Shown: positions 6,387 through 48,066 of the stretch, piece by piece
Position numbering within the stretch: the first letter of the stretch is position 1
Layout: every line of letters begins with the position of its first letter
Assembly (NCBI GenBank): GCA_965207445.1
Contig: CBDBLX010000002.1
Coordinates: 1,911,849 to 1,975,848 of the forward strand
DNA: 64,000 bases
DNA from: Nitrosopumilus sp.
Lineage (GTDB): Archaea; Thermoproteota; Nitrososphaeria; Nitrososphaerales; Nitrosopumilaceae
Reading direction: 5' to 3'
The notes under the pieces: generated by a model
The model's input: only the letters and a program-made list of their open reading frames with translations
The model's database searches: none
Told to the model about the DNA's origin: nothing
Position numbers and translations under genes: made by a program

Positions 6387-6995
6387 TTGTATAATATGAA
6401 ATCTAAACATCCAACATCAGCAGAATCATCAGCATCGCACCACCTGCTTCCATTCTCTTCCATACCATCACCACCTACAGAGAAACCAGGTACAAAATAT
6501 ACACATACCACACCATCTCTATCTGCTTACCTTCAAGGATTGAGAAGAGATCGTGTTGAAGATCACATCGTGTGGATGTATCCTGAGGGTGTGGACTTGC
6601 AGTCTGCGCTCAAGAATCTGCACGCAGGCAAATGTTGGTGTGGTCGAGACCCTGTCACTACACGTAATTGGACTGACAACGGTTGGGCGTGTTCACAAGA
6701 GCATCAGCGTATATGGTGGAAACAGTTTGAGTTCTGGCACGATGTACGTTTGCGTGTGCTAGATAGAGATGGGTGGACGTGCTGTATGTGCAGTGTGGCT
6801 TTAAGCAAGCAAGCCCAAGTTGACCATATCAAATCAATAACGGATGGTGGAGATATGTGGGATCAAAATAACATGCAGTCGCTGTGTGTACAATGCCATG
6901 AGGCAAAGACACTAGCAGACCACAAGCGACGCGCATCCATCGAGCGTCAAAGACGCGCAGAGGAGATGTGTAAACTTGACCAGTATGACACATAG
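6387..6995 (+). CDS. HNH endonuclease
   Basis: VLDRDGWTCCMC...VDHIKSITDGG...NNMQSLCVQCHEAKT is the zinc-binding HNH signature. An extra CWCG..CS motif lies upstream. The start may be ATG 6396. Confidence 0.85.
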   Translation: MYNMKSKHPTSAESSASHHLLPFSSIPSPPTEKPGTKYTHTTPSLSAYLQGLRRDRVEDHIVWMYPEGVDLQSALKNLHAGKCWCGRDPVTTRNWTDNGWACSQEHQRIWWKQFEFWHDVRLRVLDRDGWTCCMCSVALSKQAQVDHIKSITDGGDMWDQNNMQSLCVQCHEAKTLADHKRRASIERQRRAEEMCKLDQYDT

Positions 6996-12536: not shown

Positions 12537-15500
12537 TCACCCCACAGTAGACGTTGCAGTGACCACAATCAGTATGATTGCTTCATCCTCCCCACCTCTG
12601 TTGTCGTGTACACCAAACCACACATAATGTTCTCCAATGTCGCGGCCGTGTGGCAACCAGACCAGTTTTCCGGTATCGGAGTCAAATGTCGCATCAGTCA
12701 TGTTCGTGGAAAACACAAGCTTGTCAATTGGTTGATCCAAATCAACTACATCTAGATCAATCTCAAACATTTTTCCGACCGTGACTTTTATGTCCTGTTC
12801 AATAGGTAACAAGAGTACAGGAGGCTCGTTTGACTCTGCTACCTCAATTGAGACAGTCTGGCGTACGGGATCGGCTCTATGGTCAGATACTAATATGCTA
12901 AATACATGTACACCTTGCTGAGTCTCACCTGGCGTCCACTCAAAGACGCCCGTATCAGGATCGAGTGTTGCATTTTCCGGAGGTGAATCATATTTAGCAA
13001 ACGAGTAGACAAGTACATCACCATCTGCGTCAGTCGCGGCAAGATCAAGTCGTAACGGTATGTGCTCAGACACGACAACATGGTCCAGTGGATCAAATTT
13101 AGGAGATGTGTTTTGAATCGTGGTGACGTTGACTATGAGCGTGACCGTGTCAGTACCACCTGCAGGATCAGATACAGACATCTCCACATAATTCATACCA
13201 AAGTCCGATGCATGAGGCATCCAGGTAAAGCGTCCAGTATCAGGACTCATCCATGCATCAGTCATGTTTGTGCTAAACTTTAGTTTGTCACCGTCTGCAT
13301 CATATGCATCAAGATGCACAGTCACCGGAACGCCTAGTGTAGCGTTTCTTGGAGGTACATGCTCAAGTACAGGATTGTGGTTTTGAGTATGGTGTGGTTG
13401 TTCGTCTGCGGGTAGTGGTGTTCTCAGGGAAGATTCTGGTACGTTGTTGTCTGCAGGTAGTGGTGTTTCAGCAGGGGTGGTGGTGGTGGTAGTAGTAGTA
13501 GTAGTAGTGTTTTGGTTCTGTTGTGGATTATCTAGGGTAGGCGGTATTTCTGGACTAGTAAGCTCAGTGTCCGGACTCGTAATGTTGCCAGACGTGTTGT
13601 TATCATCTGCAGGGATTACCACTAGAGGTGTATTTTCAGTAGTAGTCGAGTCACTTGATTCTGCAGGTGATGGTGTCACAATAGCAGGTCCATCATACAC
13701 AGAATCAGACGTCCCATATGTACCATCATCAATTTCAGAGGACACATCAAATATTGACTGGAGTAGTTTCTCAAGTATTACATCAGGTAGGATTGACACC
13801 ACGCCATCATAAATGGTGTGTTTTGCATCATCAGTGTCGCCGGACTCACTAGGGCCAATACTCTCATAGGGTACATCATCACTAGTAGGTACATCTGGAA
13901 CTTGTCTTGTAGGTGCGTCTGGAACTTGTCGTGTAGGTGAATCTCGTATGTCTGTATCCGGGGCCGGTGGCGTGTACACACGTTCTGAATCATCTGCATC
14001 AGGTGGACTGATACTCTCTGTTCCTTTGGGTGTAGGTGTCACATCAGGCGTCGCTTGTGGATCAACTATTGTAGTATCTGGAGTATGTTCCATGTCATCG
14101 AGTCCATCTTGTGTTGAGTCAGATGCACTGGCAGGTGTGTCTTCTTGCGACATATCCCTTGTATCTATATTGGGCAGTATGTCAACAAGTGAGTCCCGTA
14201 CGTTTATGCCAGGAAGCACTCTGCTATGTATATCCGCAAATCGGATCACATCAGAGCATTGGTCTGATGTCAGGAGGAGAGGTGTGTTTACCTCCTTGCC
14301 GCTCCGATCACGTATGCTGATCTCAAATGACGTAGTGTCAGCAGGGAGTCCGGCATAGACAAAGACGTACAAGTTCACTGGTACACTTGAGAGAATATGT
14401 TCATCAAGGTTCACAAAGTTTGTAATATCTGACCCTGGGGTTGTAGTGTTGTCATATGTGATCGACGAGGAGAGGTTGTCACCGTATGTAGCAGCAAGTA
14501 GCGCAAGATATCTCTCGGGGCCGCACAAGTCATACGCAACGGCTATGGGGCTCAGTGTAAGGACCGAGCGGCCGCCATCTCCTCCGCCACCGCCGCCACC
14601 GCCACTCGATCGCGCGCCGTCTCTGGAATCTTGTCTTGGCTCATCGGACACGCGTACCGTACGCTTTGCGCCATCGGCTTCGTTTCCTGCAGTGTCTGTA
14701 CAGCTGTATGTAATTACATATGTTCCTGATACTGAGGTGTCAACGGGGTTTGACACGACAGGATTGATCGATCCATCTGTCTCATCAGTACATATAGCAC
14801 CCTCGTCTGCATATGACTGACCTCTTGTCACGGTGACATCTTGTGGGCCTACAAGTGAGATGATAGGTGGAGTAGTATCAGGCGCGGATACTATGACAAT
14901 GTCCCCGTATGCCACGGCATTTATCAAATTGCCCGCGGTGTCAGAGAACGCACCGGCACCCACCGCGAGTAGATGCGATGAGAGTGCCTCTATGTCAGCG
15001 CGCTGTTGTTCTGTGATTATAATCAGGATACGGGAGTCGTCCTCTGTAGTGACGACCATGGCGCCCGCCAATCCCACGCCGCCGGAGCCATCAGTATGGG
15101 ATACCGAGAGTTTGGCAGGATTAGTTGCAGATACATCCACGTGTTCGTCAAACGTAATTTCAAGTGTACGGTTGTTGTGGTCCAGGTTTAGCCGGGCAGA
15201 CAATACAATCGGGGGTGCTAGATCCTGCACGACTATTTGAGAAGTGGCAGAAATTTCATTGCCTACAATATCCACAAACGCCCCCGACTCCACTCTAAGA
15301 AGAGGAGAGGTCATATTCTGGATGACGGCAGCTTGCGGCCCCGTGAGGTTTATGACGACGACCGGTCCGTCCTCAACAGTGACGATAGTGGCGCCAGTTA
15401 GAACGACGTCTGGCAGTCCGGCGCTCTGTACGTATCGCACACCGGGCCCCTGCGACGCTTCCCACGTTGCGTGCTTGATTGTAGGTAAAGATATGTTTAC

Positions 15501-18500
15501 GCCTTGCGCGTGCCATACGCCCGCGGTAAACAGAGTCCGTTGCGAGCCTGCCACCGTCGGTGTGATGCTGGCAGTAGGATCGGTGCCTTCTGTGATGTAT
15601 ATCTCAGAGAGGTTTATGGCAGATATGTCGACTGGCCCATCAAACGTGATCGTAAGGGTACGTATCTCTGGATGCAGGTTCATCTCAGCTGATATGACCA
15701 CTGGAGGTTCTGTGTCCTGATCAGTTCCTGTCAGTATGGGCGTGGTAGATGCGGTGTTGGATGCGGGGCCCGTGCCCGCTATGTTAGTGGCATTGACGCG
15801 GAACTGGTATGCATTACCGTTAGTCAAGCCCGTGACAGTAGCAGAAGTTGTGCTCGTGACTGGATTGCCTGCAAACGCAGTCCACGAGGCGGCGCTACTC
15901 TGCTTGTATTCAACTGCATATCCGGTGATCTCAGAGTTGCCGTCATTTTCAGGTGCAGACCACGCCAGTTCTGCACGCGCGTTGCCCGCAGTGGCAGTTA
16001 GTCCCGTGGGGGCGTCAGGAGTCGTGTATACTTTGACTGTCCGTTGTATCTGGGCCGCTACGTTGTTAGAGTCATCCCGGCACGAGTATGTTACTGTATA
16101 ATCCTGGACAACAGACGTGTCTACTGAGCTGCTGTCGTCAGTTAATGTGGGTGCGGTGTCAAACGAGTCAGTACAAGTGGCACTTGCATCAGTATAGGTG
16201 GCACCGCGCTGCACAGAGACCGTGGCGGCACCAGTCAGTGTGATGACAGGTGCAGTGGTGTCTGTCACCTCGACGCTGCGCGACACTTGCGTTGCAGCAT
16301 TGTTTGCAGCATCAGTACAGTCGTATGTAACTACATAGGTTCCAAGCGTGCTTGGGTCTACAGTTTCACCGCCGACTGTGGCTGCCTTGTTCGGGTCGAT
16401 GTTATCTTGACATATAGCGCCAGGTTCAGTGTACGTGCCGCCTGCCTCGACGCGTACAAGCGACGGGGTGGTGATGGATATGGTGGGTGGGGTGGTGTCA
16501 GGTACGACGGGTGCGGTGGGCGTGGCGGACGCTACATTTGAGGTAGGTCCCGTGCCCGCTATGTTAGTGGCATTGACGCGGAACTGGTATGCATTACCGT
16601 TAGTCAAGCCCGTGACAGTAGCAGAAGTTGTGCTCGTGACTGGATTGCCTGCAAACGCAGTCCACGAGGCGGCGCTACTCTGCTTGTATTCAACTGCATA
16701 TCCGGTGATCTCAGAGTTGCCGTCATTTTCAGGTGCAGACCACGCCAGTTCTGCACGCGCGTTGCCCGCAGTGGCAGTTAGTCCCGTGGGGGCGTCAGGA
16801 GTCGTGTATACTTTGACTGTCCGTTGTATCTGGGCCGCTACGTTGTTAGAGTCATCCCGGCACGAGTATGTTACTGTATAATCCTGGACAACAGACGTGT
16901 CTACTGAGCTGCTGTCGTCAGTTAATGTGGGTGCGGTGTCAAACGAGTCAGTACAAGTGGCACTTGCATCAGTATAGGTGGCACCGCGCTGCACAGAGAC
17001 CGTGGCGGCACCAGTCAGTGTGATGACAGGTGCAGTGGTGTCTGTCACCTCGACGCTGCGCGACACTTGCGTTGCAGCATTGTTTGCAGCATCAGTACAG
17101 TCGTATGTAACTACATAGGTTCCAAGCGTGCTTGGGTCTACAGTTTCACCGCCGACTGTGGCTGCCTTGTTCGGGTCGATGTTATCTTGACATATAGCGC
17201 CAGGTTCAGTGTACGTGCCGCCTGCCTCGACGCGTACAAGCGACGGGGTGGTGATGGATATGGTGGGTGGGGTGGTGTCAGGTACGACGGGTGCGGTGGG
17301 CGTGGTAGATGCGGTGTTGGATGCGGGGCCCGTGCCCGCTATGTTAGTGGCATTGACGCGGAACTGGTATGCATTACCGTTAGTCAAGCCCGTGACAGTA
17401 GCAGAAGTTGTGCTCGTGACTGGATTGCCTGCAAACGCAGTCCACGAGGCGGCGCTACTCTGCTTGTATTCAACTGCATATCCGGTGATCTCAGAGTTGC
17501 CGTCATTTTCAGGTGCAGACCACGCCAGTTCTGCACGCGCGTTGCCCGCAGTGGCAGTTAGTCCCGTGGGGGCGTCAGGAGTCGTGTATACTTTGACTGT
17601 CCGTTGTATCTGGGCCGCTACGTTGTTAGAGTCATCCCGGCACGAGTATGTTACTGTATAATCCTGGACAACAGACGTGTCTACTGAGCTGCTGTCGTCA
17701 GTTAATGTGGGTGCGGTGTCAAACGAGTCAGTACAAGTGGCACTTGCATCAGTATAGGTGGCACCGCGCTGCACAGAGACCGTGGCGGCACCAGTCAGTG
17801 TGATGACAGGTGCAGTGGTGTCTGTCACCTCGACGCTGCGCGACACTTGCGTTGCAGCATTGTTTGCAGCATCAGTACAGTCGTATGTAACTACATAGGT
17901 TCCAAGCGTGCTTGGGTCTACAGTTTCACCGCCGACTGTGGCTGCCTTGTTCGGGTCGATGTTATCTTGACATATAGCGCCAGGTTCAGTGTACGTGCCG
18001 CCTGCCTCGACGCGTACAAGCGACGGGGTGGTGATGGATATGGTGGGTGGGGTGGTGTCAGGTACGACGGGTGCGGTGGGCGTGGCGGACGCTACATTTG
18101 AGGTAGGTCCCGTGCCCGCTATGTTAGTGGCATTGACGCGGAACTGGTATGCATTACCGTTAGTCAAGCCCGTGACAGTAGCAGAAGTTGTGCTCGTGAC
18201 TGGATTGCCTGCAAACGCAGTCCACGAGGCGGCGCTACTCTGCTTGTATTCAACTGCATATCCGGTGATCTCAGAGTTGCCGTCATTTTCAGGTGCAGAC
18301 CACGCCAGTTCTGCACGCGCGTTGCCCGCAGTGGCAGTTAGTCCCGTGGGGGCGTCAGGAGTCGTGTATACTTTGACTGTCCGTTGTATCTGGGCCGCTA
18401 CGTTGTTAGAGTCATCCCGGCACGAGTATGTTACTGTATAATCCTGGACAACAGACGTGTCTACTGAGCTGCTGTCGTCAGTTAATGTGGGTGCGGTGTC

Positions 18501-21500
18501 AAACGAGTCAGTACAAGTGGCACTTGCATCAGTATAGGTGGCACCGCGCTGCACAGAGACCGTGGCGGCACCAGTCAGTGTGATGACAGGTGCAGTGGTG
18601 TCTGTCACCTCGACGCTGCGCGACACTTGCGTTGCAGCATTGTTTGCAGCATCAGTACAGTCGTATGTAACTACATAGGTTCCAAGCGTGCTTGGGTCTA
18701 CAGTTTCACCGCCGACTGTGGCTGCCTTGTTCGGGTCGATGTTATCTTGACATATAGCGCCAGGTTCAGTGTACGTGCCGCCTGCCTCGACGCGTACAAG
18801 CGACGGGGTGGTGATGGATATGGTGGGTGGGGTGGTGTCAGGTACGACGGGTGCGGTGGGCGTGGCGGACGCTACATTTGAGGTAGGTCCCGTGCCCGCT
18901 ATGTTAGTGGCATTGACGCGGAACTGGTATGCATTACCGTTAGTCAAGCCCGTGACAGTAGCAGAAGTTGTGCTCGTGACTGGATTGCCTGCAAACGCAG
19001 TCCACGAGGCGGCGCTACTCTGCTTGTATTCAACTGCATATCCGGTGATCTCAGAGTTGCCGTCATTTTCAGGTGCAGACCACGCCAGTTCTGCACGCGC
19101 GTTGCCCGCAGTGGCAGTTAGTCCCGTGGGGGCGTCAGGAGTCGTGTATACTTTGACTGTCCGTTGTATCTGGGCCGCTACGTTGTTAGAGTCATCCCGG
19201 CACGAGTATGTTACTGTATAATCCTGGACAACAGACGTGTCTACTGAGCTGCTGTCGTCAGTTAATGTGGGTGTGGTGTCAAACGAGTCAGTACAAGTGG
19301 CACTTGCATCAGTATAGGTGGCACCGCGCTGCACAGAGACCGTGGCGGCACCAGTCAGTGTGATGACAGGTGCAGTGGTGTCTGTCACCTCGACGCTGCG
19401 CGACACTTGCGTTGCAGCATTGTTTGCAGCATCAGTACAGTCGTATGTAACTACATAGGTTCCAAGCGTGCTTGGGTCTACAGTTTCACCGCCGACTGTG
19501 GCTGCCTTGTTCGGGTCGATGTTATCTTGACATATAGCGCCAGGTTCAGTGTACGTGCCGCCTGCCTCGACGCGTACAAGCGACGGGGTGGTGATGGATA
19601 TGGTGGGTGGGGTGGTGTCAGGTACGACGGGTGCGGTGGGCGTGGCGGACGCTACATTTGAGGTAGGTCCCGTGCCCGCTATGTTAGTGGCATTGACGCG
19701 GAACTGGTATGCATTACCGTTAGTCAAGCCCGTGACAGTAGCAGAAGTTGTGCTCGTGACTGGATTGCCTGCAAACGCAGTCCACGAGGCGGCGCTACTC
19801 TGCTTGTATTCAACTGCATATCCGGTGATCTCAGAGTTGCCGTCATTTTCAGGTGCAGACCACGCCAGTTCTGCACGCGCGTTGCCCGCAGTGGCAGTTA
19901 GTCCCGTGGGGGCGTCAGGAGTCGTGTATACTTTGACTGTCCGTTGTATCTGGGCCGCTACGTTGTTAGAGTCATCCCGGCACGAGTATGTTACTGTATA
20001 ATCCTGGACAACAGACGTGTCTACTGAGCTGCTGTCGTCAGTTAATGTGGGTGCGGTGTCAAACGAGTCAGTACAAGTGGCACTTGCATCAGTATAGGTG
20101 GCACCGCGCTGCACAGAGACCGTGGCGGCACCAGTCAGTGTGATGACAGGTGCAGTGGTGTCTGTCACCTCGACGCTGCGCGACACTTGCGTTGCAGCAT
20201 TGTTTGCAGCATCAGTACAGTCGTATGTAACTACATAGGTTCCAAGCGTGCTTGGGTCTACAGTTTCACCGCCGACTGTGGCTGCCTTGTTCGGGTCGAT
20301 GTTATCTTGACATATAGCGCCAGGTTCAGTGTACGTGCCGCCTGCCTCGACGCGTACAAGCGACGGGGTGGTGATGGATATGGTGGGTGGGGTGGTGTCA
20401 GGTACGACGGGTGCGGTGGGCGTGGTAGATGCAGTGTTGGATGCGGGGCCCGTGCCCGCTATGTTAGTGGCATTGACGCGGAACTGGTATGCATTACCGT
20501 TAGTCAAGCCCGTGACAGTAGCAGAAGTTGTGCTCGTGACTGGATTGCCTGCAAACGCAGTCCACGAGGCGGCGCTACTCTGCTTGTATTCAACTGCATA
20601 TCCGGTGATCTCAGAGTTGCCGTCATTTTCAGGTGCAGACCACGCCAGTTCTGCACGCGCGTTGCCCGCAGTGGCAGTTAGTCCCGTGGGGGCGTCAGGA
20701 GTCGTGTATACTTTGACTGTCCGTTGTATCTGGGCCGCTACGTTGTTAGAGTCATCCCGGCACGAGTATGTTACTGTATAATCCTGGACAACAGACGTGT
20801 CTACTGAGCTGCTGTCGTCAGTTAATGTGGGTGTGGTGTCAAACGAGTCAGTACAAGTGGCACTTGCATCAGTATAGGTGGCACCGCGCTGCACAGAGAC
20901 CGTGGCGGCACCAGTCAGTGTGATGACAGGTGCAGTGGTGTCTGTCACCTCGACGCTGCGCGACACTTGCGTTGCAGCATTGTTTGCAGCATCAGTACAG
21001 TCGTATGTAACTACATAGGTTCCAAGCGTGCTTGGGTCTACAGTTTCACCGCCGACTGTGGCTGCCTTGTTCGGGTCGATGTTATCTTGACATATAGCGC
21101 CAGGTTCAGTGTACGTGCCGCCTGCCTCGACGCGTACAAGCGACGGGGTGGTGATGGATATGGTGGGTGGGGTGGTGTCAGGTACGACGGGTGCGGTGGG
21201 CGTGGTAGATGCAGTGTTGGATGCGGGGCCCGTGCCCGCTATGTTAGTGGCATTGACGCGGAACTGGTATGCATTACCGTTAGTCAAGCCCGTGACAGTA
21301 GCAGAAGTTGTGCTCGTGACTGGATTGCCTGCAAACGCAGTCCACGAGGCGGCGCTACTCTGCTTGTATTCAACTGCATATCCGGTGATCTCAGAGTTGC
21401 CGTCATTTTCAGGTGCAGACCACGCCAGTTCTGCACGCGCGTTGCCCGCAGTGGCAGTTAGTCCCGTGGGGGCGTCAGGAGTCGTGTATACTTTGACTGT

Positions 21501-24500
21501 CCGTTGTATCTGGGCCGCTACGTTGTTAGAGTCATCCCGGCACGAGTATGTTACTGTATAATCCTGGACAACAGACGTGTCTACTGAGCTGCTGTCGTCA
21601 GTTAATGTGGGTGCGGTGTCAAACGAGTCAGTACAAGTGGCACTTGCATCAGTATAGGTGGCACCGCGCTGCACAGAGACCGTGGCGGCACCAGTCAGTG
21701 TGATGACAGGTGCAGTGGTGTCTGTCACCTCGACGCTGCGCGACACTTGCGTTGCAGCATTGTTTGCAGCATCAGTACAGTCGTATGTAACTACATAGGT
21801 TCCAAGCGTGCTTGGGTCTACAGTTTCACCGCCGACTGTGGCTGCCTTGTTCGGGTCGATGTTATCTTGACATATAGCGCCAGGTTCAGTGTACGTGCCG
21901 CCTGCCTCGACGCGTACAAGCGACGGGGTGGTGATGGATATGGTGGGTGGGGTGGTGTCAGGTACGACGGGTGCGGTGGGCGTGGTAGATGCAGTGTTGG
22001 ATGCGGGGCCCGTGCCCGCTATGTTAGTGGCATTGACGCGGAACTGGTATGCATTACCGTTAGTCAAGCCCGTGACAGTAGCAGAAGTTGTGCTCGTGAC
22101 TGGATTGCCTGCAAACGCAGTCCACGAGGCGGCGCTACTCTGCTTGTATTCAACTGCATATCCGGTGATCTCAGAGTTGCCGTCATTTTCAGGTGCAGAC
22201 CACGCCAGTTCTGCACGCGCGTTGCCCGCAGTGGCAGTTAGTCCCGTGGGGGCGTCAGGAGTCGTGTATACTTTGACTGTCCGTTGTATCTGGGCCGCTA
22301 CGTTGTTAGAGTCATCCCGGCACGAGTATGTTACTGTATAATCCTGGACAACAGACGTGTCTACTGAGCTGCTGTCGTCAGTTAATGTGGGTGTGGTGTC
22401 AAACGAGTCAGTACAAGTGGCACTTGCATCAGTATAGGTGGCACCGCGCTGCACAGAGACCGTGGCGGCACCAGTCAGTGTGATGACAGGTGCAGTGGTG
22501 TCTGTCACCTCGACGCTGCGCGACACTTGCGTTGCAGCATTGTTTGCAGCATCAGTACAGTCGTATGTAACTACATAGGTTCCAAGCGTGCTTGGGTCTA
22601 CAGTTTCACCGCCGACTGTGGCTGCCTTGTTCGGGTCGATGTTATCTTGACATATAGCGCCAGGTTCAGTGTACGTGCCGCCTGCCTCGACGCGTACAAG
22701 CGACGGGGTGGTGATGGATATGGTGGGTGGGGTGGTGTCAGGTACGACGGGTGCGGTGGGCGTGGTAGATGCAGTGTTGGATGCGGGGCCCGTGCCCGCT
22801 ATGTTAGTGGCATTGACGCGGAACTGGTATGCATTACCGTTAGTCAAGCCCGTGACAGTAGCAGAATGTGCTCGTGACTGGATTGCCTGCAAACGCAGTC
22901 CACGAGGCGGCGCTACTCTGCTTGTATTCAACTGCATATCCGGTGATCTCAGAGTTGCCGTCATTTTCAGGTGCAGACCACGCCAGTTCTGCACGCGCGT
23001 TGCCCGCAGTGGCAGTTAGTCCCGTGGGGGCGTCAGGAGTCGTGTATACTTTGACTGTCCGTTGTATCTGGGCCGCTACGTTGTTAGAGTCATCCCGGCA
23101 CGAGTATGTTACTGTATAATCCTGGACAACAGACGTGTCTACTGAGCTGCTGTCGTCAGTTAATGTGGGTGCGGTGTCAAACGAGTCAGTACAAGTGGCA
23201 CTTGCATCAGTATAGGTGGCACCGCGCTGCACAGAGACCGTGGCGGCACCAGTCAGTGTGATGACAGGTGCAGTGGTGTCTGTCACCTCGACGCTGCGCG
23301 ACACTTGCGTTGCAGCATTGTTTGCAGCATCAGTACAGTCGTATGTAACTACATAGGTTCCAAGCGTGCTTGGGTCTACAGTTTCACCGCCGACTGTGGC
23401 TGCCTTGTTCGGGTCGATGTTATCTTGACATATAGCGCCAGGTTCAGTGTACGTGCCGCCTGCCTCGACGCGTACAAGCGACGGGGTGGTGATGGATATG
23501 GTGGGTGGGGTGGTGTCAGGTACGACGGGTGCGGTGGGCGTGGTAGATGCAGTGTTGGATGCGGGGCCCGTGCCCGCTATGTTAGTGGCATTGACGCGGA
23601 ACTGGTATGCATTACCGTTAGTCAAGCCCGTGACAGTAGCAGAAGTTGTGCTCGTGACTGGATTGCCTGCAAACGCAGTCCACGAGGCGGCGCTACTCTG
23701 CTTGTATTCAACTGCATATCCGGTGATCTCAGAGTTGCCGTCATTTTCAGGTGCAGACCACGCCAGTTCTGCACGCGCGTTGCCCGCAGTGGCAGTTAGT
23801 CCCGTGGGGGCGTCAGGAGTCGTGTATACTTTGACTGTCCGTTGTATCTGGGCCGCTACGTTGTTAGAGTCATCCCGGCACGAGTATGTTACTGTATAAT
23901 CCTGGACAACAGACGTGTCTACTGAGCTGCTGTCGTCAGTTAATGTGGGTGCGGTGTCAAACGAGTCAGTACAAGTGGCACTTGCATCAGTATAGGTGGC
24001 ACCGCGCTGCACAGAGACCGTGGCGGCACCAGTCAGTGTGATGACAGGTGCAGTGGTGTCTGTCACCTCGACGCTGCGCGACACTTGCGTTGCAGCATTG
24101 TTTGCAGCATCAGTACAGTCGTATGTAACTACATAGGTTCCAAGCGTGCTTGGGTCTACAGTTTCACCGCCGACTGTGGCTGCCTTGTTCGGGTCGATGT
24201 TATCTTGACATATAGCGCCAGGTTCAGTGTACGTGCCGCCTGCCTCGACGCGTACAAGCGACGGGGTGGTGATGGATATGGTGGGTGGGGTGGTGTCAGG
24301 TACGACGGGTGCGGTGGGCGTGGCGGACGCTACATTTGAGGCGGGGCCCGTGCCGGCAGTGTTCATGGCATTGATGCGAAACTCGTACGTGACATCGTTT
24401 GTCAATCCCATGATGATAAGAGAACTGATCCCGGTAGTGAGGATGTTGCTGCCGGCAGGTGTGGTCCACGCGCCTCCGCCGGACCGTTGTTCTACCACAT

Positions 24501-36500: not shown

Positions 36501-39500
36501 CCGGGCGTCCAGGATAACGTGCTGCCTGATATTACCGGTACATCATCATCATCATCATCAGCAACGGTGTCTGTTACATTGTGCGATACGATGGTAAATG
36601 TGACGGGCTCGTCTGCTTCCAAGGTGTGGGTGCCCTCAACGTGCTCAGTAAATGACAGAGAGGCAGCAGAAGATGTGATAGTCGGCGGGGTGATATCGGC
36701 CGTGGCAAGAGGGGTGGCAGATATCGTATCAGATGCAGGGCCCGTGCCTGCCACGTTTGTGGCGTTTATACGGAACATATATAACTGATCATTTGTCAGG
36801 TTTAAGACGGTAGCATCAGTGTCATTAGATATGCCGTCGTCAAATGTAATCCACGTTGTACCCGCATCTAAACTGTACTGTATAATATAATCAGTTATTG
36901 TAGAGCCACCGTCATCTGTGGGCGGTATCCACGTCAGTTTGACCTTTTCATTGCCGATATCGACAGACAAATCTGTGGGCGCGCCCGGCAAACCGCGCGG
37001 TGTTGAAGATATCACATCAGAGGCGGGGCCCGTGCCGATCACGTTTGTGGCATTTATGCGAAACAGGTGTTCGAGTTTGTTTGTCAAGCCCACGACTATA
37101 ACATAGGTGTCATCAGAGGTGCCGTCGGCAAATGTACGCCACGTAGTGCCGGCGTCTGAACTGTACTGTATAATGTAATCAGTTATTGTAAAGCCGCCGT
37201 CATGTATGGGCGGCATCCACGTCAATACGACGCGCTCGTTGCCCGGGATGGCGGCAAGCGAGGTCGGGGGGCCCGGAGCGCTGCGCGGGATGGCAGATGC
37301 CACATTAGAGGCAGGGCCCGTGCCTGCCACGTTTGTGGCGTTGACGCGAAACTCGTACGGTATACCGTTTGTCAGATTTGAGACGATAGTAGAGGTGGCG
37401 GGGCCCATGTCATCATCAAATGTAATCCACGTTGTGCCGGCGTCTGAACTGTACTGTATAGTATAATCAGTTATTGTAAAGCCGCCGTCATCTGTGGGCG
37501 CTGCCCATCTCAGTGTGACCCGCTCGTTGCCCGGGGTGGCGGCAAGCGAGGTCGGGGCGCCCGGAGCGCCACGCGGGACGGCAGATGCCACATTAGAGGC
37601 AGGGCCCGTGCCTGCCTCATTTACGGCTTTGATGCGAAATTCGTACGGTAGACTGTTTGTCAGATTTGAGACGGTGACAGTAGTGTCACTAGATATGTCA
37701 TCTACAAATACATCCCACAGAGCGGCGCTGCTCAGCTTGTACTCTACGGCATAATCCGTAATTGAAGATCCCCCGTCGTCTGTAGGTGCAGTCCACGTCA
37801 GTCTGGCGTGCGCGTCGCCGGCGACTGCAGATAGTCCCACAGGGGCAGCCGGGACCGTACGCGGCGTGGCAGATACCGTATCAGAGGCGGGGCCCGTGCC
37901 TGCCACGTTTGTGGCGTTTATGCGAAATTGGTATTCCTGCCTGTTTACCAGGCCCGTGACGTTTGCAAATGTGGCATCTGTAGGGTCGTCTGGATACAGG
38001 TTCCACGTAGAGCCGCCGTCATCACTGTATTCGATGGTATAGTCAATGACACGTGAGCCGCCGTTGTTTAAAGGCGCGCTCCACTCTAGCTCAACGTACG
38101 TATAGTCCGCAGTAGCAGTCAGCATTCTCGGGGCGTCTGGAATCGTCGCCATAGCGGCAACATCAGGTGCTTTAGATATTACATCAGATGCGGGGCCCGT
38201 GCCTGCCACGTTTGTTGCGTTTACACGAAATTCATATAAAACTCCGTTTGTGAGCTTTAAGACTGTGGCTTTGGTAAATGTGCTGATGCCATCATTAAAC
38301 AAGATCCACGTCGTGGCGTTGACTATTCTGTACTCTATGGTATAGTCAGTTATTGCAGATCCGCCGTCATCGCCACCACCATCAGCCCACATCAAGTCCA
38401 CCTGCCCGTTGCCTGCAGTAGCAGTCAGTCCAGTGGGCGCGCCCGGAGCGCCGCGCGGGGTGGCAGATGCCACATTAGAGGCAGGGCCCGTGCCTGCCTC
38501 ATTTGTGGCGTTGACGCGAAACTGGTACAGTATGCCGTTTGTCAGGCCCGTGACGGTTCCAGCGGGGAGGTCGCCGCTGCTCGGAAATATGTTCCATGTG
38601 GCTCCGCCGTCGTTGCTGCGCTCTATGACATAGTCAAAAATCACAGAGCCGCCGTCGTCACCAGCAGTCCACATCAGGTCCACTCGCCTGTCGCCTGCAG
38701 TAGCAGTCAGTTCGGTGGGTGCGTCAGGGAGTGTATGCGGGGTGGCAGATACCGTATCAGAGGCTGGGCCCGTGCCTGCCACACTTGTGGCGTTGACGCG
38801 AAACTCATACTGTATACCGTTTGTCAGGCCCGTGATGGTGGCAGTGGTGCCATCAAAGGGGCCACCAGTCAGATACTCTGACCATGCGCCACCAATCGGC
38901 CTGTACTCTAATGTATACTCAATAATGTCGGATGCTCCGGCGCCCATAGGTGCGCTCCACGCCAGCTCAACTTGCGCGTCTTCTGCAGTGACAGTCAGTT
39001 CTGTGGGCGCTCCGGGAATCATAGTCGGGGTGGCAGATGCCACATTAGATGCGGGGCCCGTGCCTGCCACATTTGTGGCGTTTACGCGAAACTCGTACGG
39101 TATACCGTTTGTCAGGTTTGATATAATGGTGTTAAGGCCGGCGCCGGCGCTCAGAAAAGTGTCCCATGCAGAGCCGCCGACTCTGCGATATTCTACAGTA
39201 TAATCAGTGATCGTAGAGCCGCCGTTGTCCTCAGGCGGATTCCATACGAGCTCAACTCTAGTGTCGCCCAGCAGGGCTCTCAGTTCCATGGGTGCGCCCG
39301 GAGTGCCGCGCGGGGTAGCAGATGCCACATTAGATGCGGGGCCCGTGCCTGCCACATTTGTGGCGTTGACGCGAAACTGGTACAGTATGCCGTTTGTCAG
39401 GCCCGTGACGGTAGTGTCAGTGCCGGCGCCTGCCACAGGGTGGGCGCGCCACGTGGCGCCCGCATTTGAGCTATATTCTACTATATAACCTGTTATTGCA

Positions 39501-42500
39501 GAGCCACCATCGTCACTACTAGCAGTCCACGACAGCTCAGCTTGCGCGTCTCCCGCAGTGACAGTCAATCCGGCAGGCGCGTCAGGTGTCGTGTATACCA
39601 TGACTGTCCGATGCACCTGCGGGGCCGAGTTGCCAGAGGCATCCTGACACGAGAACGTGACAGTATATGTCCCGGCAGTAGACGTATCAACAACGCCATC
39701 GCTACTGCTATCATCTGTTAATGTGGGGGCGTCATCAAAAGTATCAGTACATTCGGCACCCGAATCTGAATAGGCAGAGTCAGTTGGAATCAGGACTAGA
39801 GAGCTGCCCATCAGATTAATCACGGGCGCAGTCGTGTCGGCCACCAGGACGTACCTTATCACGCGGTCAGATCGCATGTCGTCGGAGTCAGTGCATATGT
39901 ATGAGACCTGGTATGTTCTGATTACATTTGGGTTGACTGCGTCACTACCCTCAACATCGGCAGGCTTGTCCGGATCTTTGTTATCCTCACACGTGGCGCC
40001 CTCCTCAGTGTACGTGCCCGTACCCGCCTCAACGCGGACAATTGACGATCCGCTGAGGATGACGACAGGCCTCAGAGTTTCATGTACGGTGATCTGTGCA
40101 TTCACAGAGTGGGTGCCACCCATGCCATCAGATACGCTGAACCGGATTATATGCTGCCCTATGTCGTCGTTGCCAGGCGTCCAGGTAAACGTGCTGCCCG
40201 TAATTGTACCGTTTGTGGCATTAGTAGAGTAGACTAGCACGTTGGCAGGAATGTCCTCGTCGCTTGCGTAAAGTGAGATTACACGCTCTTGGTCTACAGC
40301 TGCTGCCTGCTGTCCCGGACTGTCTATAACCGGGGGCCGGTTGACCTCGCGTGCAGTTACCTTGATTGTCTGATTGAGGCTTTCCCGGAAGAGATCCACT
40401 GCAGTGATAATCACGTCGTGTGTGTCACCGTGGCCGCCCTGAGATTCGGTGGCATTCCACACCAGCCGGCCGTCGTCTGATAGTGTGGGTAGCGGGCCGG
40501 TCCTGCCATTTTTGTTCTCTCCGGGGTCTGCAAGCGACAGATTGGCAAGTCTGTTGAGGGTGATGCGGTGCTGCAACTCGACATGCTCATCAACTGACGG
40601 TGTAGCAGACGATGTGAACGCTAGTTCGTTTCTGGAGGCCAAATTGCTAAAAAAGACCACCTCAAACGGCTTATCTGTCGCCTCGATCACGATTCCCGTC
40701 ACGTCTCGGAACGCTCCGCGCTCTACGCGAAGTACAACATCATCAAAGTCTCCGAGCTGCCACACCAGAGGCATCAATGACTCTGGTATGCGTATCTTGA
40801 TTGACAAAGAGTCAAAGTCTGTCACTATATCAAAGTTGTCAAATACGAGTTGCCCTCCAGTAGAGTTTGTAAATGACAGTAGCGTCAGGTCGATTTGTGA
40901 CACGTCGATTTTGTGTAAGAGCTCGTTTAGTGGGGGTCCGGCGTTCTCTTTAAAGTGTATCGTAAACGTCCCGTCCTGTACTATGTTGCCAAGCTCACGT
41001 ATCTCAGGCGCCATGGCAGTACGGCTGCCGACGTCGAGTTGTATCGTACTCTTTGCGATCGGGTTTCCTGCAAGATCTCTGAACGCGCCGCGCTCCACGC
41101 CTAGATATAACTCAGAGTCAGAGGAAAAGTCAAGGTTAAATATTTCAGTGGCCACGCTACTCGGGAGCTTTATGGCAACGTGTGCATCATCAGATGTCGT
41201 CACGAGTGTGCCGCGTGCGAGGCTTATCACGACGTGCGCAGAGTCCCCGGTTCCGTTTGATACGGACAGCCCGGCAAAGTCGGCCTCTGATACGTCTACT
41301 GTTTCATCAAAGTCAAGGAAGAGTGTTTGTGAACTTCTGTGCGCGTTTAATGCGGCGACTGTGAGGGATGGCGATTGTCCGTCATTAATGACGCTGATCG
41401 GCAGCGTCACGGCCGCTCCTGGCACGGCAGACGGGCTGACAAACGCCCCCTCCTGAACCCTGAGCAATATAATGTCCCCTAGGGCATCTATCTGTGAGAT
41501 CTGTGCAGGTGTAAGTGTGATTAAGACGCCCATACCACCACCCGTTGCTTGCGCCATCTCTGCGCCGCCAAGTGACACGTCCCGGCTCGTGTCATCTATA
41601 CTGTCGGTGACGGAGAGTTTTTCAAGGTTCGTCAACTCTGCAACGACTGCGTTGCTAAAGCTGACAAGCAGCGTGCGCACGGCGGGCGCCACGTTCATAG
41701 TGGCATTTGACGCATGGGGCGGCGGCGTGGTGATCTCTGCTGTGTCCAGTACGACGGAGGTTTTGTCCATAGGATTTCCTGACACGTCAGAAAACGTGCC
41801 CTCTGATGCTACCAAATACAACACGGACTGCCTCAGGTTCAATATGTCTCTGCGTTGCGTGTCGGTGATCTCCAACACCACGTCCTTGCCGTCAGATATA
41901 GTACGTATGGTGGAGTTGGCAAGCCCCACAGCAACCGTGCCATTGGAATCACCTGAGACTGCCAGTCCCCGTATTGCAGTAGCAGAGACGTCGACTGTTT
42001 CATCAAAGGAGATCAACAGAGTGCGTCCCTGTGTGTTTATGGTAGCGCCCGTAATTATAGGCGGGGCCGTGTCGTTGCGTATAATTATCGGGTTATTAAC
42101 GTCTTCTGCGCTCTCAATGCCATTTACAGTGATGACTGCGCCGGCATCCAAGTCGAGCTCAAGTGGGCGAGTCATATCAAGAACCTGTAGCCTCTGCTCT
42201 TCTGTCATCTCTATTACAAGGATTGGTCCGTCGTCTTGCGATGACGATACTGATGCCTCTGTCAACTGCACGCCGCCAGACGACGCGCCGCGCTCGCGTA
42301 TGTAAAACTTTGACGTGTCGACGTGATCAGCAGGCGTTGCATCAACTGCCACACTGAATGTAACACGGAGTTCTCGGCTGCCAGAGTCCAGATCAATGAC
42401 TGCCAGGTCAGCCTCTGTCGGCGTTATGTCCTCCACAGTTATCATAACAGACGCGTCCACCTTATTTTGCGCCATATCCGTAGCAGAGACCGTGACCGTG

Positions 42501-45500
42501 TGCGTGCCGGCCGCAAGTTGATGCGTGATGCTCATCTGGTTGTCATACTGTGGCAGTTCAGTGCCGTCTGCGCTCCAGGATATAGATGGTATCTCAATGT
42601 TGTCAGATATCTGGGCCTCAAACCGTATGGGCTGCAGCGAGTGGAATGAACCGTCGGCAGGCGATATGATGTCTACAGAAGGCAATATCCCGTCAACAGA
42701 TATAGTACTGGTAAACGCCAGCGGTCCGGACTTGCTAACAGGCGGCTGCGGGTTTATCTGCATTGTCAGCTCGGGGGGCGGGAGGTCAGGTAGTACGTCT
42801 CTGAATGGATGTGATGCTGCCTTTATGGCAGCACCGTCAGGAAACCTCAGCGAGTCAGCAGACACATAGTTGAGATCCATAGTATAGTCACCGTCTTGCA
42901 CCAAATATGAAAAGACGAGTTGCGCAGTACCGTTGCCACCATCATATCTGGCAGTTCGGTCAGCCGCGCCCGTCTCCAGATCTAGCACGGGTGTGCCCGT
43001 GACATGTACAGGCTCAGAAAAGTGAACATTAATGAACACCTGCCTGCCTGCGCCATACGTCTCCTCAGTCTGGGCGCCTGACACACCATAAGCAAGGATG
43101 TCTCTGTCCCAGAACAGCACGTACACGGCCCCCCTCGCGCCCACGGCAACCTCGGGGGCGCCGTCGCGGTCCAAGTCACCTATAACAGCAAAGGATAAGC
43201 CAAACTCGCGGACGTCATCGCCTATTGCATGCATCGCCCGGTTAATCTCATATGAGCCCTTTATACTCCCATCTGAGTTCAAAAGTAGCATGTGGACGGT
43301 ACCGGCGTTGTTCACACCATCTCTGTCTGCCCCAGGGGCCCCTACTGCGACATCCGGCGTCCCGTCGCCGTCCAGATCGCCCGCGGCCCCGACGGACAGT
43401 CCAAAGTCGTCGTTTGCCCGTATCGCCGGGGCATTTTCTGACGAGGCGTCTAGTTTTAGGACAGACTTTACAGATATCGTGCCGCCACCGCCACCACTGC
43501 GCTCAAGCAGTATTACATGCACGGCCTCATCGTACCCCGAGCTCACATTGTCGTGGTTAAAGGAGCTGTCCGAGGGATGCGATCCGGACACCAAATCTAT
43601 CATGCCATTACCGTCGATGTCACCGACGGCAGCAAGCGAGAATCCCAACCCTGCGCCGTCTGCGAGGTCAAAGCCGCGTGCGCTGTCGCGGTTTATCTCG
43701 GCCACGTGCTGCGCGCGCACCTGCTGGCCGCCTGACCCACGGTCCAGCGAAAGTATATGTATAGCGCCACTAGCACGGGGGCCGTCCCCGTTGGCTCCGA
43801 CTGCCACATAGACAGTCTTGTCAAAATCCAGGTCGCCCAGAACTGCCAGCGCGGACCCAAAGTTGTCGCTCACCCTTATGCGACCCTCCTGGCCCCGGAC
43901 GCTGGGATCAAGGCCTGCCAAATTCTGCGGGCCAAAAGAAGATGTATGGTTTACCGTGCCGTCTGGGTTTAGCAATCGCACCTGGATCTCTCCGCATGTG
44001 CCAGGATTGCATACGGGGTTACCAGCTTCCGGGACGCCCACCAATATATCCGTGGTGCCGTCACGGTTGATGTCTCCTATGTTGACAGCGGATCTTCCAA
44101 ACCCCGCAGAGTGAGTGGCTTGACCGACGCTGCTCTTGACTGTGCCGTTTGGGTTCATAAATGCGATGTGAAATCCAGAAGGCGTACGGTCAAAAATATT
44201 CCGAGTGCCGTACGATCCCACGGCAAGATCCGGGGTGCCGTCGCGGTTCAGGTCTCCTAGCCCAGCCACTGCCGTATTGTACACCGGAGCCCTTTTACAG
44301 ATATTTATGTCCAGGGAAAAGCATTCATACCCTCTATGATGTAGTATTCGGTGCACCTCAAACAGTTGTATCTCAGTGCTGTCGCCCAACTCTTCGCTGG
44401 GCCCCGGCTTTGGGGCATAAAGCGGGATCAAATGCACCACACCCAGTTTAGCGCCCGTATAATTGTACGTGGGCTCACTGACTACAAGGTCGGTCACACC
44501 GTCGCCGTTAAAGTCAGCGGCCGCTATCTCGGTGCCAAACCCGTCTCTCTGGTCCATTATCATGATGTGCTCTGTGTCGTTGTTGATTGTAATTGTGGAC
44601 TTTGGGACACCGTCGCCGCCGAGGTACACCAGATGTATCGAGTTGTCATCCACAGAGGTCGCTTCACCCGGAGCCCCCACGGCTATATCGTAGAATCCAT
44701 CGCCGTCCAGATCGCCCATTCCCGTCACAGAGCTGCCAAAGTTGGAACGAGAGGTCTGGCGCGGGCCAAACTCGTCGCTGCTAGTTATTTTGTGCAACAG
44801 GTTCAACGACGGGGAGCCGTTTGCATATCCTAGTGACAGTAAGAATACAGAGCCGTCCTTGCTTCCGTTGTGAGGTTCACCCGGTGCCCCTACTGCAATC
44901 TCCGTGGTGCCGTCGCCGTTGACATCACCCACGTTTGCAACTGACGTGCCAAATTTGATATCAGGTCCAGTAGTATCTCCACCCACCGATCTGTAGGTGA
45001 ACTTGTATGTAGATTTGATAGAGTTTGCGCTGTTCATTAAAATTACATGTATGGCGCCCTGATTTGCCACCGTCGAACCGAGCGGGTCATCAAAGTCATC
45101 ATTAGGGGTGCCCACCACCACATCAGGAACGCCGTTACCATCAATGTCGCCAGCAGACGCCACAGAGGCGCCAAATTCATCAAACTGTTCAAGGATGGGT
45201 CCTCCGTTCGCATTGTGTATCGCAAATGAGGACTTTAGTGTGCCGTTGCTGTGAAGCAGTACCACGTATACGGTGCCCGTATTAGGTCCACTATCGTCAT
45301 CTCCGGTAGCGCCCACCAGTATATCCATAACACCGTCGCCGTCCATGTCGCCGGCAGGTGCCACAGAGGTGCCAAAATAGTCATGTGAACCCCGGACCGG
45401 CTGCTTTTGGTCCAGTATGACTTGTACTGATTTTATAGCATACCCACCATCTTCCATCAGTATTATAAACACGGCGCCCTCGTTCTCATCACTACTGTCT

Positions 45501-47512
45501 TCAGTTGGGTCATAGTCCTTTGCCCCCACTGCAAAGTCAACGGCACCGTTGCCGTCTATGTCCCCTATGGATGCCACAGATGAGCCAAAGTCACTGCCCC
45601 TCTCAGTCGGAAAGAGAGAAGAGGACGTCACATTGATGGTAAACGTGCCGGCGGCAATAGGGGCGGCAATAGGGGCGGCAATAGGCACATATCTGGGCGG
45701 CGCGGTGTCTATTCCAAACTCCGAGAGTCCGACCTTGACTACATACGGAAGATCGCTGTCGGCCACAAGCACGTAATCACCAATAACTGCAATATCATAC
45801 GGGTCTCCGAACAGATCGAGTCCTGAGCCTTCATCTCCGAACTGCGAGATGAATAGTCCCGAGGGTGTAAACACCGACACCCGTTGGTTTGAGGAATCCA
45901 CGGCAAATACGCGCGATCCGTCAAATGCCATACCACGCACGGCGGCAAACTCACCTTGGCCGGTACCGCTACGACCAAACTCGGATATATAATCTCCAGA
46001 ATGATCAAACACCTGCACTATATCCCGGTCGCGGTCTGCCACGTAGATGTGCATATTGTTGACTGCAATGCCAGTGGGATTTCGGAACTGGCCGTTACCA
46101 AAGCCGTTGCCGCCGAACTTTGTGACAAAGGTGCCATTGGTGTAAAATATCTGAACATCGTTTCGCGTGATATCCGATACAAAGACATGCGTAGAGTTGG
46201 CAGCAATGCCAGTGGGGTTTCGGAACTGGCCGTTGACAGTACCGGTGCCGCCGAACTTTGTGACAAATGCCCCAGTGTCGGCTCGGAACACATGGATGAG
46301 ATCCCGCGCGTTGTCTGACACAAAGACAAACTCAGAGTTGGCCGCGATGGCAGTAGGGCTTCGGAACTGGCCATTTGCATTACCCTGACTGCCAAACTTT
46401 GAGAGATAGTTGCCGTTATAATCAAGTACTTGCACGTCCCGGCGCTGAGAATCCAGCACAAATATCTTCTCAGCATTGGCCGTAATTGAGCGTACAGTCT
46501 GGAACTGTCCATCGCCGCTACCCTTGATTATATCCCCGGCAAACGCATACGGATAATTGTTAAACACCCTGACCCTGTCGCCGCCCCCTGTATCTGCCAC
46601 AAAGGTGCGGAATTTGATAATTGTAATGCCAGTCGGATCGTGTAGTTGACTCGCGGTGCCGGCAGTATTGTTAAATGTGCGCACATATTTTCCGGACAGA
46701 TCAAATACCTGAACGTCGCCGCGGCCAGAGTCCATCACCATAATGTTCGCCGAGTCTACCTCGATGCCCGTGGGGTCTTGGAATTGGCCGTTAGCGGTGC
46801 CGGTGCTGCCAAAGCTCGAGAGATGTTTTCGCGTGTTGGCATCAAAGATGTGCACCATGTCGCCGGCGGTATCCGTCACAAAGACGTGAGTGGCGTTGGC
46901 CGCGACCGCGTGTGGATCGCGCAAGGAGGAGTGGGACAAAGTACCTGCCGATGATCGGATTTTATCTTCATTGTTGGTGGTTACGTCGAGTACCGTGACG
47001 TAGTCCCGTTGTGTGTCCGTCACAAAGATGTGCGTGCCGTTGGAGGCCATGCCTAGAACATCATTAAAGTAACCTCTCGGAGTCTCACCCGCCTTCTGTC
47101 CAATCTTTGGGTAAACGAACAGTTGTTTCCCTGAATGATCATATACTTCGAGCCGCTCATAAAGGACGAAATTGAAATTAAGTGCACTGTAGTCGGTCAT
47201 CACAAACACCTTATCGTGGGTGACTGTAAGGACTCGTGCTTGTGCAGAGACGTCAAACTCCGAGACGAGTGAATCGCGTTCGTCAAATATGAAGACTTTG
47301 CCGGTGGATTCTGTTTTGAGGGCATCTAGCACAAACACATGCGTTGAGTTGGAGTCAATATCCTGCAGGTTTTCAAAATTACGGACAAAGTTGTACTCAA
47401 ATGAGGATGCGTGCGCCTCATTACTACCACCACCACCACCACCAGTATCATCATACATTACAAACAGAGCAGACGTAATGATAATAACAGACATCATAAC
47501 TAAGAGACTCAT
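12537..47512 (-). CDS. Giant multidomain surface protein/adhesin (~11,658 aa after repairing two indels)
   Basis: The 4351-, 3918- and 3485-aa ORFs overlap and join mid-domain. Sister repeats reveal a 1-bp insertion at ~34531 and a 2-bp deletion at ~22867; the corrected 34,977 bp is exactly 11,659 codons. Domains: N-terminal hydrophobic segment, NHL repeats, FG-GAP, FN3, DUF5011-like and cadherin/Ig-like domains, and a Pro/Thr/Asp linker. Confidence 0.85.
15737..24354 (-). repeat. Coding tandem array: 11 near-identical 780-bp units (260 aa = 2 DUF5011-like Ig + 1 FN3)
   Basis: Units start at 15738, 16518, 17298 ... 22758, 23536 and 24316. The unit carrying the deletion is 778 bp. Confidence 0.97.
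24570..25900 (-). repeat. Internal duplication (Ig + NHL propeller block); partner copy at ~34970-36290
   Basis: Near-identical DNA and protein (TDRILVSDRDNKNVQIFSPDGSYLGKLRGHTF; GVAVNSTGHVFV). Boundaries are approximate. Confidence 0.85.
27560..33830 (-). repeat. Duplication of a ~2.9-kb block at ~3.39-kb spacing (Ig + NHL propellers + HYR/DUF5011 + FN3); third copy of the NHL core at ~45720-46900
   Basis: ACTCTATGGTATAATCAGTAATTACAG at 27561 and 30951. The peptide ITANAEKIFVLDSQRRDVQ occurs three times. Confidence 0.88.
33893..34770 (-). repeat. Three 288-bp tandem FN3 units
   Basis: CCCGTGCCTGCC at 33893, 34181, 34469 and 34758 (spacing 288, 288, 289). The 289 spacing marks the 1-bp insertion. 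Confidence 0.93.
43100..45600 (-). repeat. FG-GAP (integrin-alpha beta-propeller) repeat region of the giant protein
   Basis: About a dozen FG.SVA..GD(I/L/M/V)(D/N)GDG..D..VGA(P) motifs, in two clusters. Confidence 0.9.
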
Positions 47513-47642
47513 GACGCGCCTGACACAGTCCGATGTGTTGCCCAGTTCTAATCACCTTTTTCCCAACAGCATGCAAATATCCCACCAACTACATAGCATA
47601 ATATAGTCAGATGTATTACACATTTAGGTACACCTTCCATTT

Positions 47643-47655
47643 CCCCCCCCCCCCC
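47643..47655. repeat. C13 (G13 on the coding strand) homopolymer ~130 bp upstream of the giant gene
   Basis: 13 consecutive C in otherwise AT-rich intergenic DNA. Confidence 0.9.
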
Positions 47656-48066
47656 AACACACACATCCTATACAGACCAATTTGTTTAATAACATAAAAA
47701 GTCGTATATAAAATAACATTTCAATTTTTCTGTTTACTACAGATGTAAAATACATATAGTAAAATACTATACCCGAATTTTGCGAAAGTCGTATAATCAC
47801 CAACATAGTTGCTACCAAATTGTTTGTATTAATAAATACGCATAATTAACTGTCATGATTTTTAGATTCTCCAAAAGCACGAGCTCAGGTCAAATCAGAT
47901 ACATTGACATCCATACGTACCTGACCGCAAGACGTCAATAAGTGAAAAATAGAGTACAGTAATTCATAAATCATATACATACAAGTCACCGTATTGTACA
48001 ATGATGTACAATACACAAGAGTTTAATCATCAAAAACATGTAAACTTTAGAATTTGACTGATACAG

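Follow-up and report, generated by a model that had tools for sequence, protein, structure and literature searches.

Here, we describe a gene of about 35 kb that would encode a giant secreted surface protein of 11,658 amino acids (aa) in an ammonia-oxidizing archaeon, and that is probably intact, its two frame breaks being, as judged from sequence, consensus errors which interrupt it only in the assembly. The gene lies in a 64,000-nt stretch of contig CBDBLX010000002.1 (Nitrosopumilus sp., assembly GCA_965207445.1, positions 1,911,849 to 1,975,848 of the forward strand), hereafter the window, to which coordinates refer unless a genome and contig are named. Three minus-strand open reading frames (ORFs), ORF1 at 47512-34457 (4,351 aa), ORF2 at 34596-22840 (3,918 aa) and ORF3 at 22994-12537 (3,485 aa), stand in differing frames and overlap one another by 140-155 nt. 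Alignment of sister repeats reveals a net gain of one base at 34531/34532 and a gap of two bases between 22867 and 22866. The corrected span is 34,976 - 1 + 2 = 34,977 nt, or 11,658 codons plus a stop, and the joined in-frame pieces hold no stop codon over all 11,658 codons. The coordinates, the arithmetic and the absence of further stops are as the initial annotation of the window had given them.

12537..47512, minus strand: whole gene, 11,658 aa after both breaks are accounted for (ORFs and sister-repeat alignment)
34509..34533, minus strand: break 1, a patch of eight differences with a net gain of one base (alignment to sister repeats)
22866..22867, minus strand: break 2, lacking two bases that every sister unit has (alignment to sister units)

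The predicted full protein has a mass of ~1.22 MDa, an isoelectric point (pI) of ~4.3 and 130 N-glycosylation sequons. Its gene takes up 1.3% of the genome, and the GC content at third codon positions is 0.51-0.56 as compared to a genome median of 0.32 (95th percentile 0.55).

Origin of the two frame breaks

Both breaks fall in near-identical repeats, as initially proposed: break 1 in a 288-bp array (3.3 copies, 95% matches) and break 2 in an array of 780-bp units, in which the 10 full units aligned have 15 variable columns in all and break 2 as their sole indel. The net gain of one base at 34531 stood, but break 1 is no clean single insertion. Relative to the neighboring copy it comprises 8 difference columns within 24, as against one difference in the other ~265, and removing one base leaves 10 substitutions in the patch, with Lys where 30 of 30 other fibronectin type III (FN3) hits have Asn. 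A one-base correction thus probably restores the length and leaves wrong residues over about five codons, and the patch looks like a burst of read errors rather than evolution.

No frame change was found in ordinary genes, as represented by 223 orthologs covering 204.7 kb of the source genome, the ones to pass the ortholog filter among 351 ORFs taken from 400 kb of a relative (G012). In-frame stops occurred in five of the 223, all of them short queries (124-170 aa) and probably shadow ORFs. In a paralog of the giant gene (G000:C2:1477660-1500106), by contrast, 7 of 38 array units are off-frame, whereas all 11 units of a shorter sister are in frame, so that indels gather in long near-identical arrays. 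These counts favor errors in repeats as the likelier cause of the breaks, as first suggested; the splitting of giant genes by long-read indels is described in the portion of bioRxiv 2023.11.21.568195 drawn on here. A genome-wide scan for overlapping ORF pairs was too noisy for use.

Read contigs were examined over ORF1 and break 1. Across ORF1, the coding indels listed from three runs all preserve the frame, and one read contig of 6,448 bases covers 39518-45964 gap-free. A joint skipping 1,503 bases (37973 to 39477) and joints at 43381 were set aside as probable repeat or other-organism contigs. In the unique region, 12 of 21 population substitutions are synonymous (among 40 substitutions listed, with 159 more present), which is above neutral expectation and below strict conservation.

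Several observations weigh against an intact gene. The read contigs listed at break 1, beyond which there are 404 further pieces, are of the sister type at the junction, and among those listed none carries the correction at 34531. A rate of two frameshifts in 35 kb does not significantly exceed the upper bound set by the control genes (P = 0.09). In 150 genomes of the genus, no full-length ortholog was found. Moreover, the genome is full of insertion sequence (IS) copies and slippage-prone runs, so that real recent damage is possible. The breaks could accordingly mark a gene recently inactivated in the dominant strain, leaving a truncated product of 4,351 aa or nothing useful; a 35-kb gene is costly, the population is a mixture of strains (contigs C1 and C2 are ~98.6-99% alike), miniature inverted-repeat transposable elements and homopolymers abound besides the IS copies, and the assembly is otherwise frameshift-free in ordinary genes. 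We nevertheless consider inactivation unlikely: break 1 would need eight clustered events, or 10 substitutions and an insertion, within 24 bases of otherwise identical DNA, and no stop interrupts the 11,658 codons. Set against single-copy pieces, the sister-type junction has a depth (32.4 vs 8-12 in X1, 28.7 vs 7-16 in X2, 50 vs 14-32 in X3) of ~2-3 times single copy, near the expectation for three intact copies, which leans weakly in the same direction.

It is far less probable still that the three ORFs are separate genes or yield products of several lengths by programmed frameshifting. Each has a possible start codon, yet the starts of ORF2 and ORF3 lie inside an FN3 domain and overlap the preceding ORF, and only ORF1 has a signal segment. 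Neither junction has a slippery run, and each break is private to a single repeat copy. In addition, one chain (P0003) unites modules of the ORF2 type (55% identity) with the C-terminal block of ORF3 (48.5%, 1,115 columns), and other members of the genus have intact frames of more than 10,000 aa.

Domain architecture

The content of NHL, FG-GAP, FN3 and cadherin-like or immunoglobulin-like (Ig) domains reported initially was recovered by Pfam scans of 32 of 51 chunks and then of all three frames whole; no catalytic domain passed in either. Seed-based counts gave 31 FN3 (two broken copies were partly missed), 27 PF16403, 7 Big_5-type and 12 cadherin-like matches (two seeds) along with 3 NHL heads, and the chain holds about 90 beta-sandwich domains of the FN3, Ig and cadherin-like types. 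In order from the N-terminus, the features are as follows.

47408..47512, minus strand: Sec-type signal peptide, aa 1-35 (hydropathy scan and A-x-A site)
45695..47404, minus strand: NHL head 1, ~570 aa, probably two six-bladed propellers (domain and structure-relative search)
43103..45679, minus strand: FG-GAP region, 11 calcium-loop motifs; two propellers of the integrin-alpha type are probable (domain scan, motif count)
40643..42427, minus strand: five Big_5-type repeats of ~118 aa, Pfam-blank in the chunk scan (alignment and model)
36711..39581, minus strand: run of diverged FN3 repeats, 65-80% DNA identity (repeat and domain scan)
35063..35932, minus strand: single NHL propeller (domain scan)
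33883..34838, minus strand: 288-bp FN3 array, 3.3 copies at 95% matches, containing break 1 (repeat finding)
31561..33261, minus strand: NHL head 2, ~82% DNA identity to head 1 (repeat comparison)
28165..29868, minus strand: NHL head 3 (repeat comparison)
24655-25524, minus strand: second single NHL propeller, a recurrence of the first (domain scan)
15737..24591, minus strand: stalk of ~11.4 near-identical 780-bp (260-aa) units, 8.85 kb (repeat alignment)
12540..15821, minus strand: conserved C-terminal block, no membrane anchor (domain scan and alignment)

The signal segment is the sole strongly hydrophobic 19-mer of the chain (Kyte-Doolittle score 2.45; next best 1.71), and its A-x-A site directly before the mature start is common to a paralog (G000:C2:863338); cleavage is predicted after residue 35. 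Hydropathy and domain scans found no other membrane segment and no C-terminal anchor, be it a hydrophobic or a sorting segment. The closest solved relatives of the NHL heads are the NHL domains of TRIM71 and TRIM2 (TRIM71 E 8e-54) and the nearest solved structure to the FG-GAP region is integrin alpha-IIb (E 1.5e-13), likenesses that denote kinship of fold and not origin. Heads 2 and 3 lie within a ~3.4-kb duplication of 83% DNA identity.

Ig domains separate the FG-GAP region from the Big_5-type repeats, which are followed by cadherin-like and PF16403 domains. A single-sequence model of the 600-aa blank region reached a predicted local distance difference test (pLDDT) score of 34.7, whereas one ~118-aa repeat modeled with a 19-row alignment reached 92.7 and gave an Ig-type fold, closest to an SbsC S-layer domain (Z 10.5, root-mean-square deviation 2.7, 103 aligned); the idea that these repeats have a new fold was accordingly abandoned. 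Big_5 matched 8 of the 19 repeat members. Each 780-bp stalk unit consists of two PF16403 Ig domains and one FN3 domain, and the stalk is a mosaic of two unit variants. The C-terminal block comprises two Big_5-type repeats, PF16403, a Gly linker, a ~120-aa domain, a linker rich in Pro, Thr and Asp, and three cadherin-like domains; its likeness to P0003 extends up to the last residue, and the ~120-aa domain has no Atlas match at 0.9 or above (best 0.80).

Host and link to sponges

The source genome (G000) comprises 2.61 Mb in two contigs with 39.6% GC, 96.4% completeness and 5.5% contamination. It carries one archaeal amoA; the host is an ammonia-oxidizing archaeon, which bears out the earlier assignment of the gene to archaea. 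Its 121-kb contig C1 duplicates the start of C2 at ~98.6-99% identity and is probably a second strain haplotype, which would explain the contamination value.

In four runs from a single sample, 0.87-0.94 of the words from 40000-47500 are present, as compared to 0.06 in a run of a second study that is labeled as sponge metagenome. That run contributed eight contigs spread over 35990-46543, two at >=99% and six at 95-99% identity, so the sponge sample contains a close strain that carries the 5' part of the gene or more of it; the link to sponges comes from this one independent run.

Proposed function

The N-terminal signal, the lack of a C-terminal anchor and the surface-type domains agree with the secreted surface protein first suggested. 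Domain scans found binding and scaffold families alone. From its sequence, the protein seems rather likely to be a non-catalytic, Sec-exported filament of a sponge-associated archaeon that is held on the cell and binds host matrix or host cells, and it may serve in adhesion to the host. Based on what is known of the families concerned, the chain would be exported by the Sec pathway, cleaved after residue 35 and N-glycosylated. Its beta-sandwich domains, at ~4 nm each, would then make up a semi-rigid tether some 0.3-0.45 micrometres long. Some eight NHL and two calcium-binding FG-GAP propellers, which sit at the tip and over the initial two thirds of the chain, could bind host matrix, host cells or neighboring cells multivalently, while the conserved C-terminal block might hold the chain non-covalently on the S-layer. 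The near-identical 780-bp stalk may change its length by recombination. S-layer anchoring, ligand and tether length are all presumptive.

The main functional rival to an adhesin is a shield role as for SwmB, in which the intact gene would provide a steric coat or protection from phagocytosis. The missing anchor, the acidic pI and the 130 sequons would suit such a coat. Halomucin, for which a shield role has been proposed, is loosely attached (PMC4378361), and SwmB of 10,791 aa is described in PMC9387257, within the text drawn upon, as resisting protistan predation. An Atlas SWM_repeat cluster matched the Big_5-type repeats at 0.94, with a low recognition score that makes it a lead only, and a 10,061-aa frame with FN3 and NHL domains also exists in a small relative of 1.6 Mb. 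However, PF13753 (SWM_repeat) matched none of the 19 repeat members, and an architecture of ten propeller-type heads on a defined stalk fits specific binding more readily than it fits a coat of the mucin kind. We regard a shield as improbable, if somewhat less so than inactivation of the gene. The initial annotation took these domains as enriched in sponge symbionts. Section 20 of PMC7848895 reports otherwise for these archaea: free-living ammonia-oxidizing archaea (AOA) have NHL, cadherin and Ig domains as well, and FN3 shows no difference, so that domain content alone does not establish host interaction.

Size and relatives within the genus

At 11,658 aa the protein is very large, but the claim that it is one of the largest archaeal proteins has to be qualified, as longer frames exist in its own genus. 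With the NHL query, 150 other genomes of the genus yielded open frames of 18,683 and 15,627 aa (G159), 13,079 aa (G161) and 10,061 aa (G171), three of them confirmed fully and the fourth over 17,779 aa. At most nine candidates per genome were scored and 145 matches stood outside the listing, so that at least three of the 150 genomes have frames >10,000 aa. Since intact genus frames span 10,061-18,683 aa, the source protein is no size record. The 18,683-aa frame runs uninterrupted from 1066664 upward on G159:C1 (L060-L062). The 15,627-aa frame (G159:C1:230825-288380, L063-L066) has a signal-like start and overlaps a frame of 3,727 aa, one base off, with which it would make ~19,186 codons; both G159 frames are candidates for the longest archaeal proteins. 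The other two, at G161:C1:1227893-1267129 (NHL-rich) and G171:C1:646594-676776 (FN3-rich), are also uninterrupted. Few archaeal proteins exceed 10,000 aa, and most are from Asgard archaea, according to section 5 of bioRxiv 2023.11.21.568195.

These giants, like a 4,066-aa ORF in G145 and P0003, have modules in common with the source gene and no full-length match to it. Identity is 33-38% for NHL, 38.7% over 1,034 columns for the FN3 run of G171 and 39% over 1,328 columns for the FG-GAP/Big_5 block of G145, and the giants have 5-11% multi-copy 31-mers compared to 33% in the source gene. For the C-terminal part, the 150 genomes yielded no close ortholog (best 43% over 184 aa), nor was the P0003 locus found in the genome contigs. 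Public protein sets hold only pieces of the gene (P0012); protein searches reach 3,000 or 5,000 aa, and full-length giants are beyond their reach.

Comparison with known systems

The source protein would be a giant modular secreted surface protein of a kind already known, neither a record nor a new fold. Halomucin of Haloquadratum walsbyi, an archaeal protein of 9,159 aa that was shown to be secreted and to stay loosely attached, resembles it in its megadalton scale and Sec-type signal (PMC4378361, in part). As described there, the best matches of halomucin are mucins, whereas in the source protein NHL, FG-GAP, FN3 and Ig domains follow one another in a set order; it exceeds halomucin in length by 27% and comes from a marine ammonia oxidizer. 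The comparison is one of size and description, not of sequence homology. Huge Thaumarchaeota proteins with SGL/lactonase propellers, treated in parts of PMC11573180, are also >5,000 aa, rich in beta-propellers and from the same phylum. The source protein differs in that it carries NHL and FG-GAP propellers on an FN3/PF16403 stalk, its SGL hits being weak and below the cut-off. Cenarchaeum symbiosum has an ORF of ~11,900 aa.

Among bacterial proteins, SwmB of Synechococcus WH8102 is a similarly large, repetitive and non-catalytic surface protein with another domain set (PMC9387257, in part); the link from Big_5 to SWM is a feature-level lead only. Periscope Proteins, as presented in the sections of PMC9704523 used here, likewise have N-terminal heads on a tandem beta-sandwich stalk of very high DNA identity, but they are bacterial and usually have a C-terminal cell-wall anchor; the word archaea is absent from the main text of that review. 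Their hallmark of repeats >50 residues with very high DNA identity is seen in the 260-aa stalk units, while an anchor at the C-terminus opposite the N-terminal domain is not, the heads being present and the anchor absent. Variation in unit number occurs between paralogs with the same N- and C-termini (38 vs 11 anchor-to-anchor units), which are other genes and not the source gene. Integrin alpha shares the FG-GAP propeller with calcium loops; its C-terminal transmembrane helix has no counterpart near the C-terminus of the source protein, a secreted archaeal chain.

A poly-G run in the presumed leader

Upstream of the start codon stand two further features.

47643..47655, minus strand: G13 run in the presumed 5' leader; 131 nt separate its end from the ATG (sequence)
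47705..47713, minus strand: putative TATA-like box (read from sequence)

Read contigs of one sample have G11, G13, G14 and G15 at the run, a spread to be expected from slippage and from sequencing error alike. Between the run and the ATG all three frames contain stops, and the run therefore cannot shift the frame of the giant gene; a switch, if there is one, would have to work through transcription or through a short upstream ORF. Such an ORF (47548-47666, minus strand) contains the run and has 16 codons with G13, and no run length puts it in frame with the giant gene. With G11 or G14, lengths seen in X1 and X3, it would have ~39 codons and end 35 nt before the giant ATG.

The source genome has 35 G/C runs of >=10 and 165 G11 windows, as compared to at most 29 in 60 relatives. 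A run lies within 500 nt upstream of five of five gene starts with NHL/FG-GAP heads (two of which are duplicates, and one of the runs belongs to a repeated element) vs 19 of 1,179 ORFs. None of the genus giants whose start was fetched has a G run of >=9 at its 5' end. The link of a leader poly-G run to the giant family is new here. Among the literature listings searched, no paper dealt with genes of this kind in Nitrosopumilaceae, nor with FG-GAP proteins of sponge archaea or switching by poly-G in them. It is tempting to combine these features into an archaeal contingency adhesin, a host-binding filament with poly-G-switched expression and, in the manner of a Periscope Protein, a stalk whose reach is tuned by recombination, within a lineage-wide shuffled family of 4,000-19,000 aa. 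We put this forward as a tentative proposal that is as yet doubtful.

Poly-G runs also occur elsewhere in the genome. Secreted proteins of 870-980 aa (L037-L042) have them between start codon and signal peptide, with G11 and G14 in frame and G19 out of frame; the two that were scanned have no Pfam match, and the C-terminal end recurs in a 3,743-aa NHL paralog (L032). A restriction-modification gene (G000:C2:1298568-1302960, L043; Mrr_cat_2, ResIII, helicase, N6 methylase) falls into two frames whose point of division coincides with a G15 run, and is a candidate phase-variable defense gene.

Paralogs and genomic neighborhood

The paralogs with the same termini and with 38 and 11 stalk units lie at G000:C2:1477660-1500106 and 1528382-1539862 (L033-L035), the longer having ~7,480 codons broken by its seven off-frame units. 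An NHL/cadherin paralog (G000:C2:1374138-1376474 and 1370672-1374244, L036) is split into 785 and 1,191 aa inside a cadherin-like repeat. Directly downstream of the giant gene, a 1,561-aa protein with tandem Cache-like repeats is encoded at 7462-12147 (minus strand); Cache domains are enriched in some sponge AOA (PMC7848895, in part). Two IS6-type (DDE_Tnp_IS240) copies flank the region (1394-2809 and 48713-49777), the upstream one carrying an element of ~118 bp (49829-49946) with ~40 genome copies. A composite transposon formed by the flanking copies is not supported, there being ~9 near-full copies across the genome. The segment 50581-63629 encodes a Superfamily 1 helicase (AAA_11/AAA_12), a 713-aa ORF without Pfam match, a radical SAM protein and a B12-binding radical SAM protein, and looks like a defense or mobile island. 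An HNH endonuclease (6387-6995) and a DDE_Tnp_1-type transposase (3479-4423) lie near the other end.

Implications

Genes of this kind, whose frames reach 18,683 aa in the genus, are concealed by annotation. If the proposal of a contingency adhesin is true, some of the longest archaeal proteins recorded may belong to the family in host-associated ammonia oxidizers, and the poly-G leader together with the near-identical stalk would extend surface variation of the bacterial style to an archaeal giant protein. If the gene is intact, its share of the genome is spent on one surface chain which, given the usual size of these cells, would be about as long as the cell itself. Each head lends itself to expression and assay on its own, and the protein is a concrete candidate for how ammonia-oxidizing symbionts attach to their sponge or escape being eaten.

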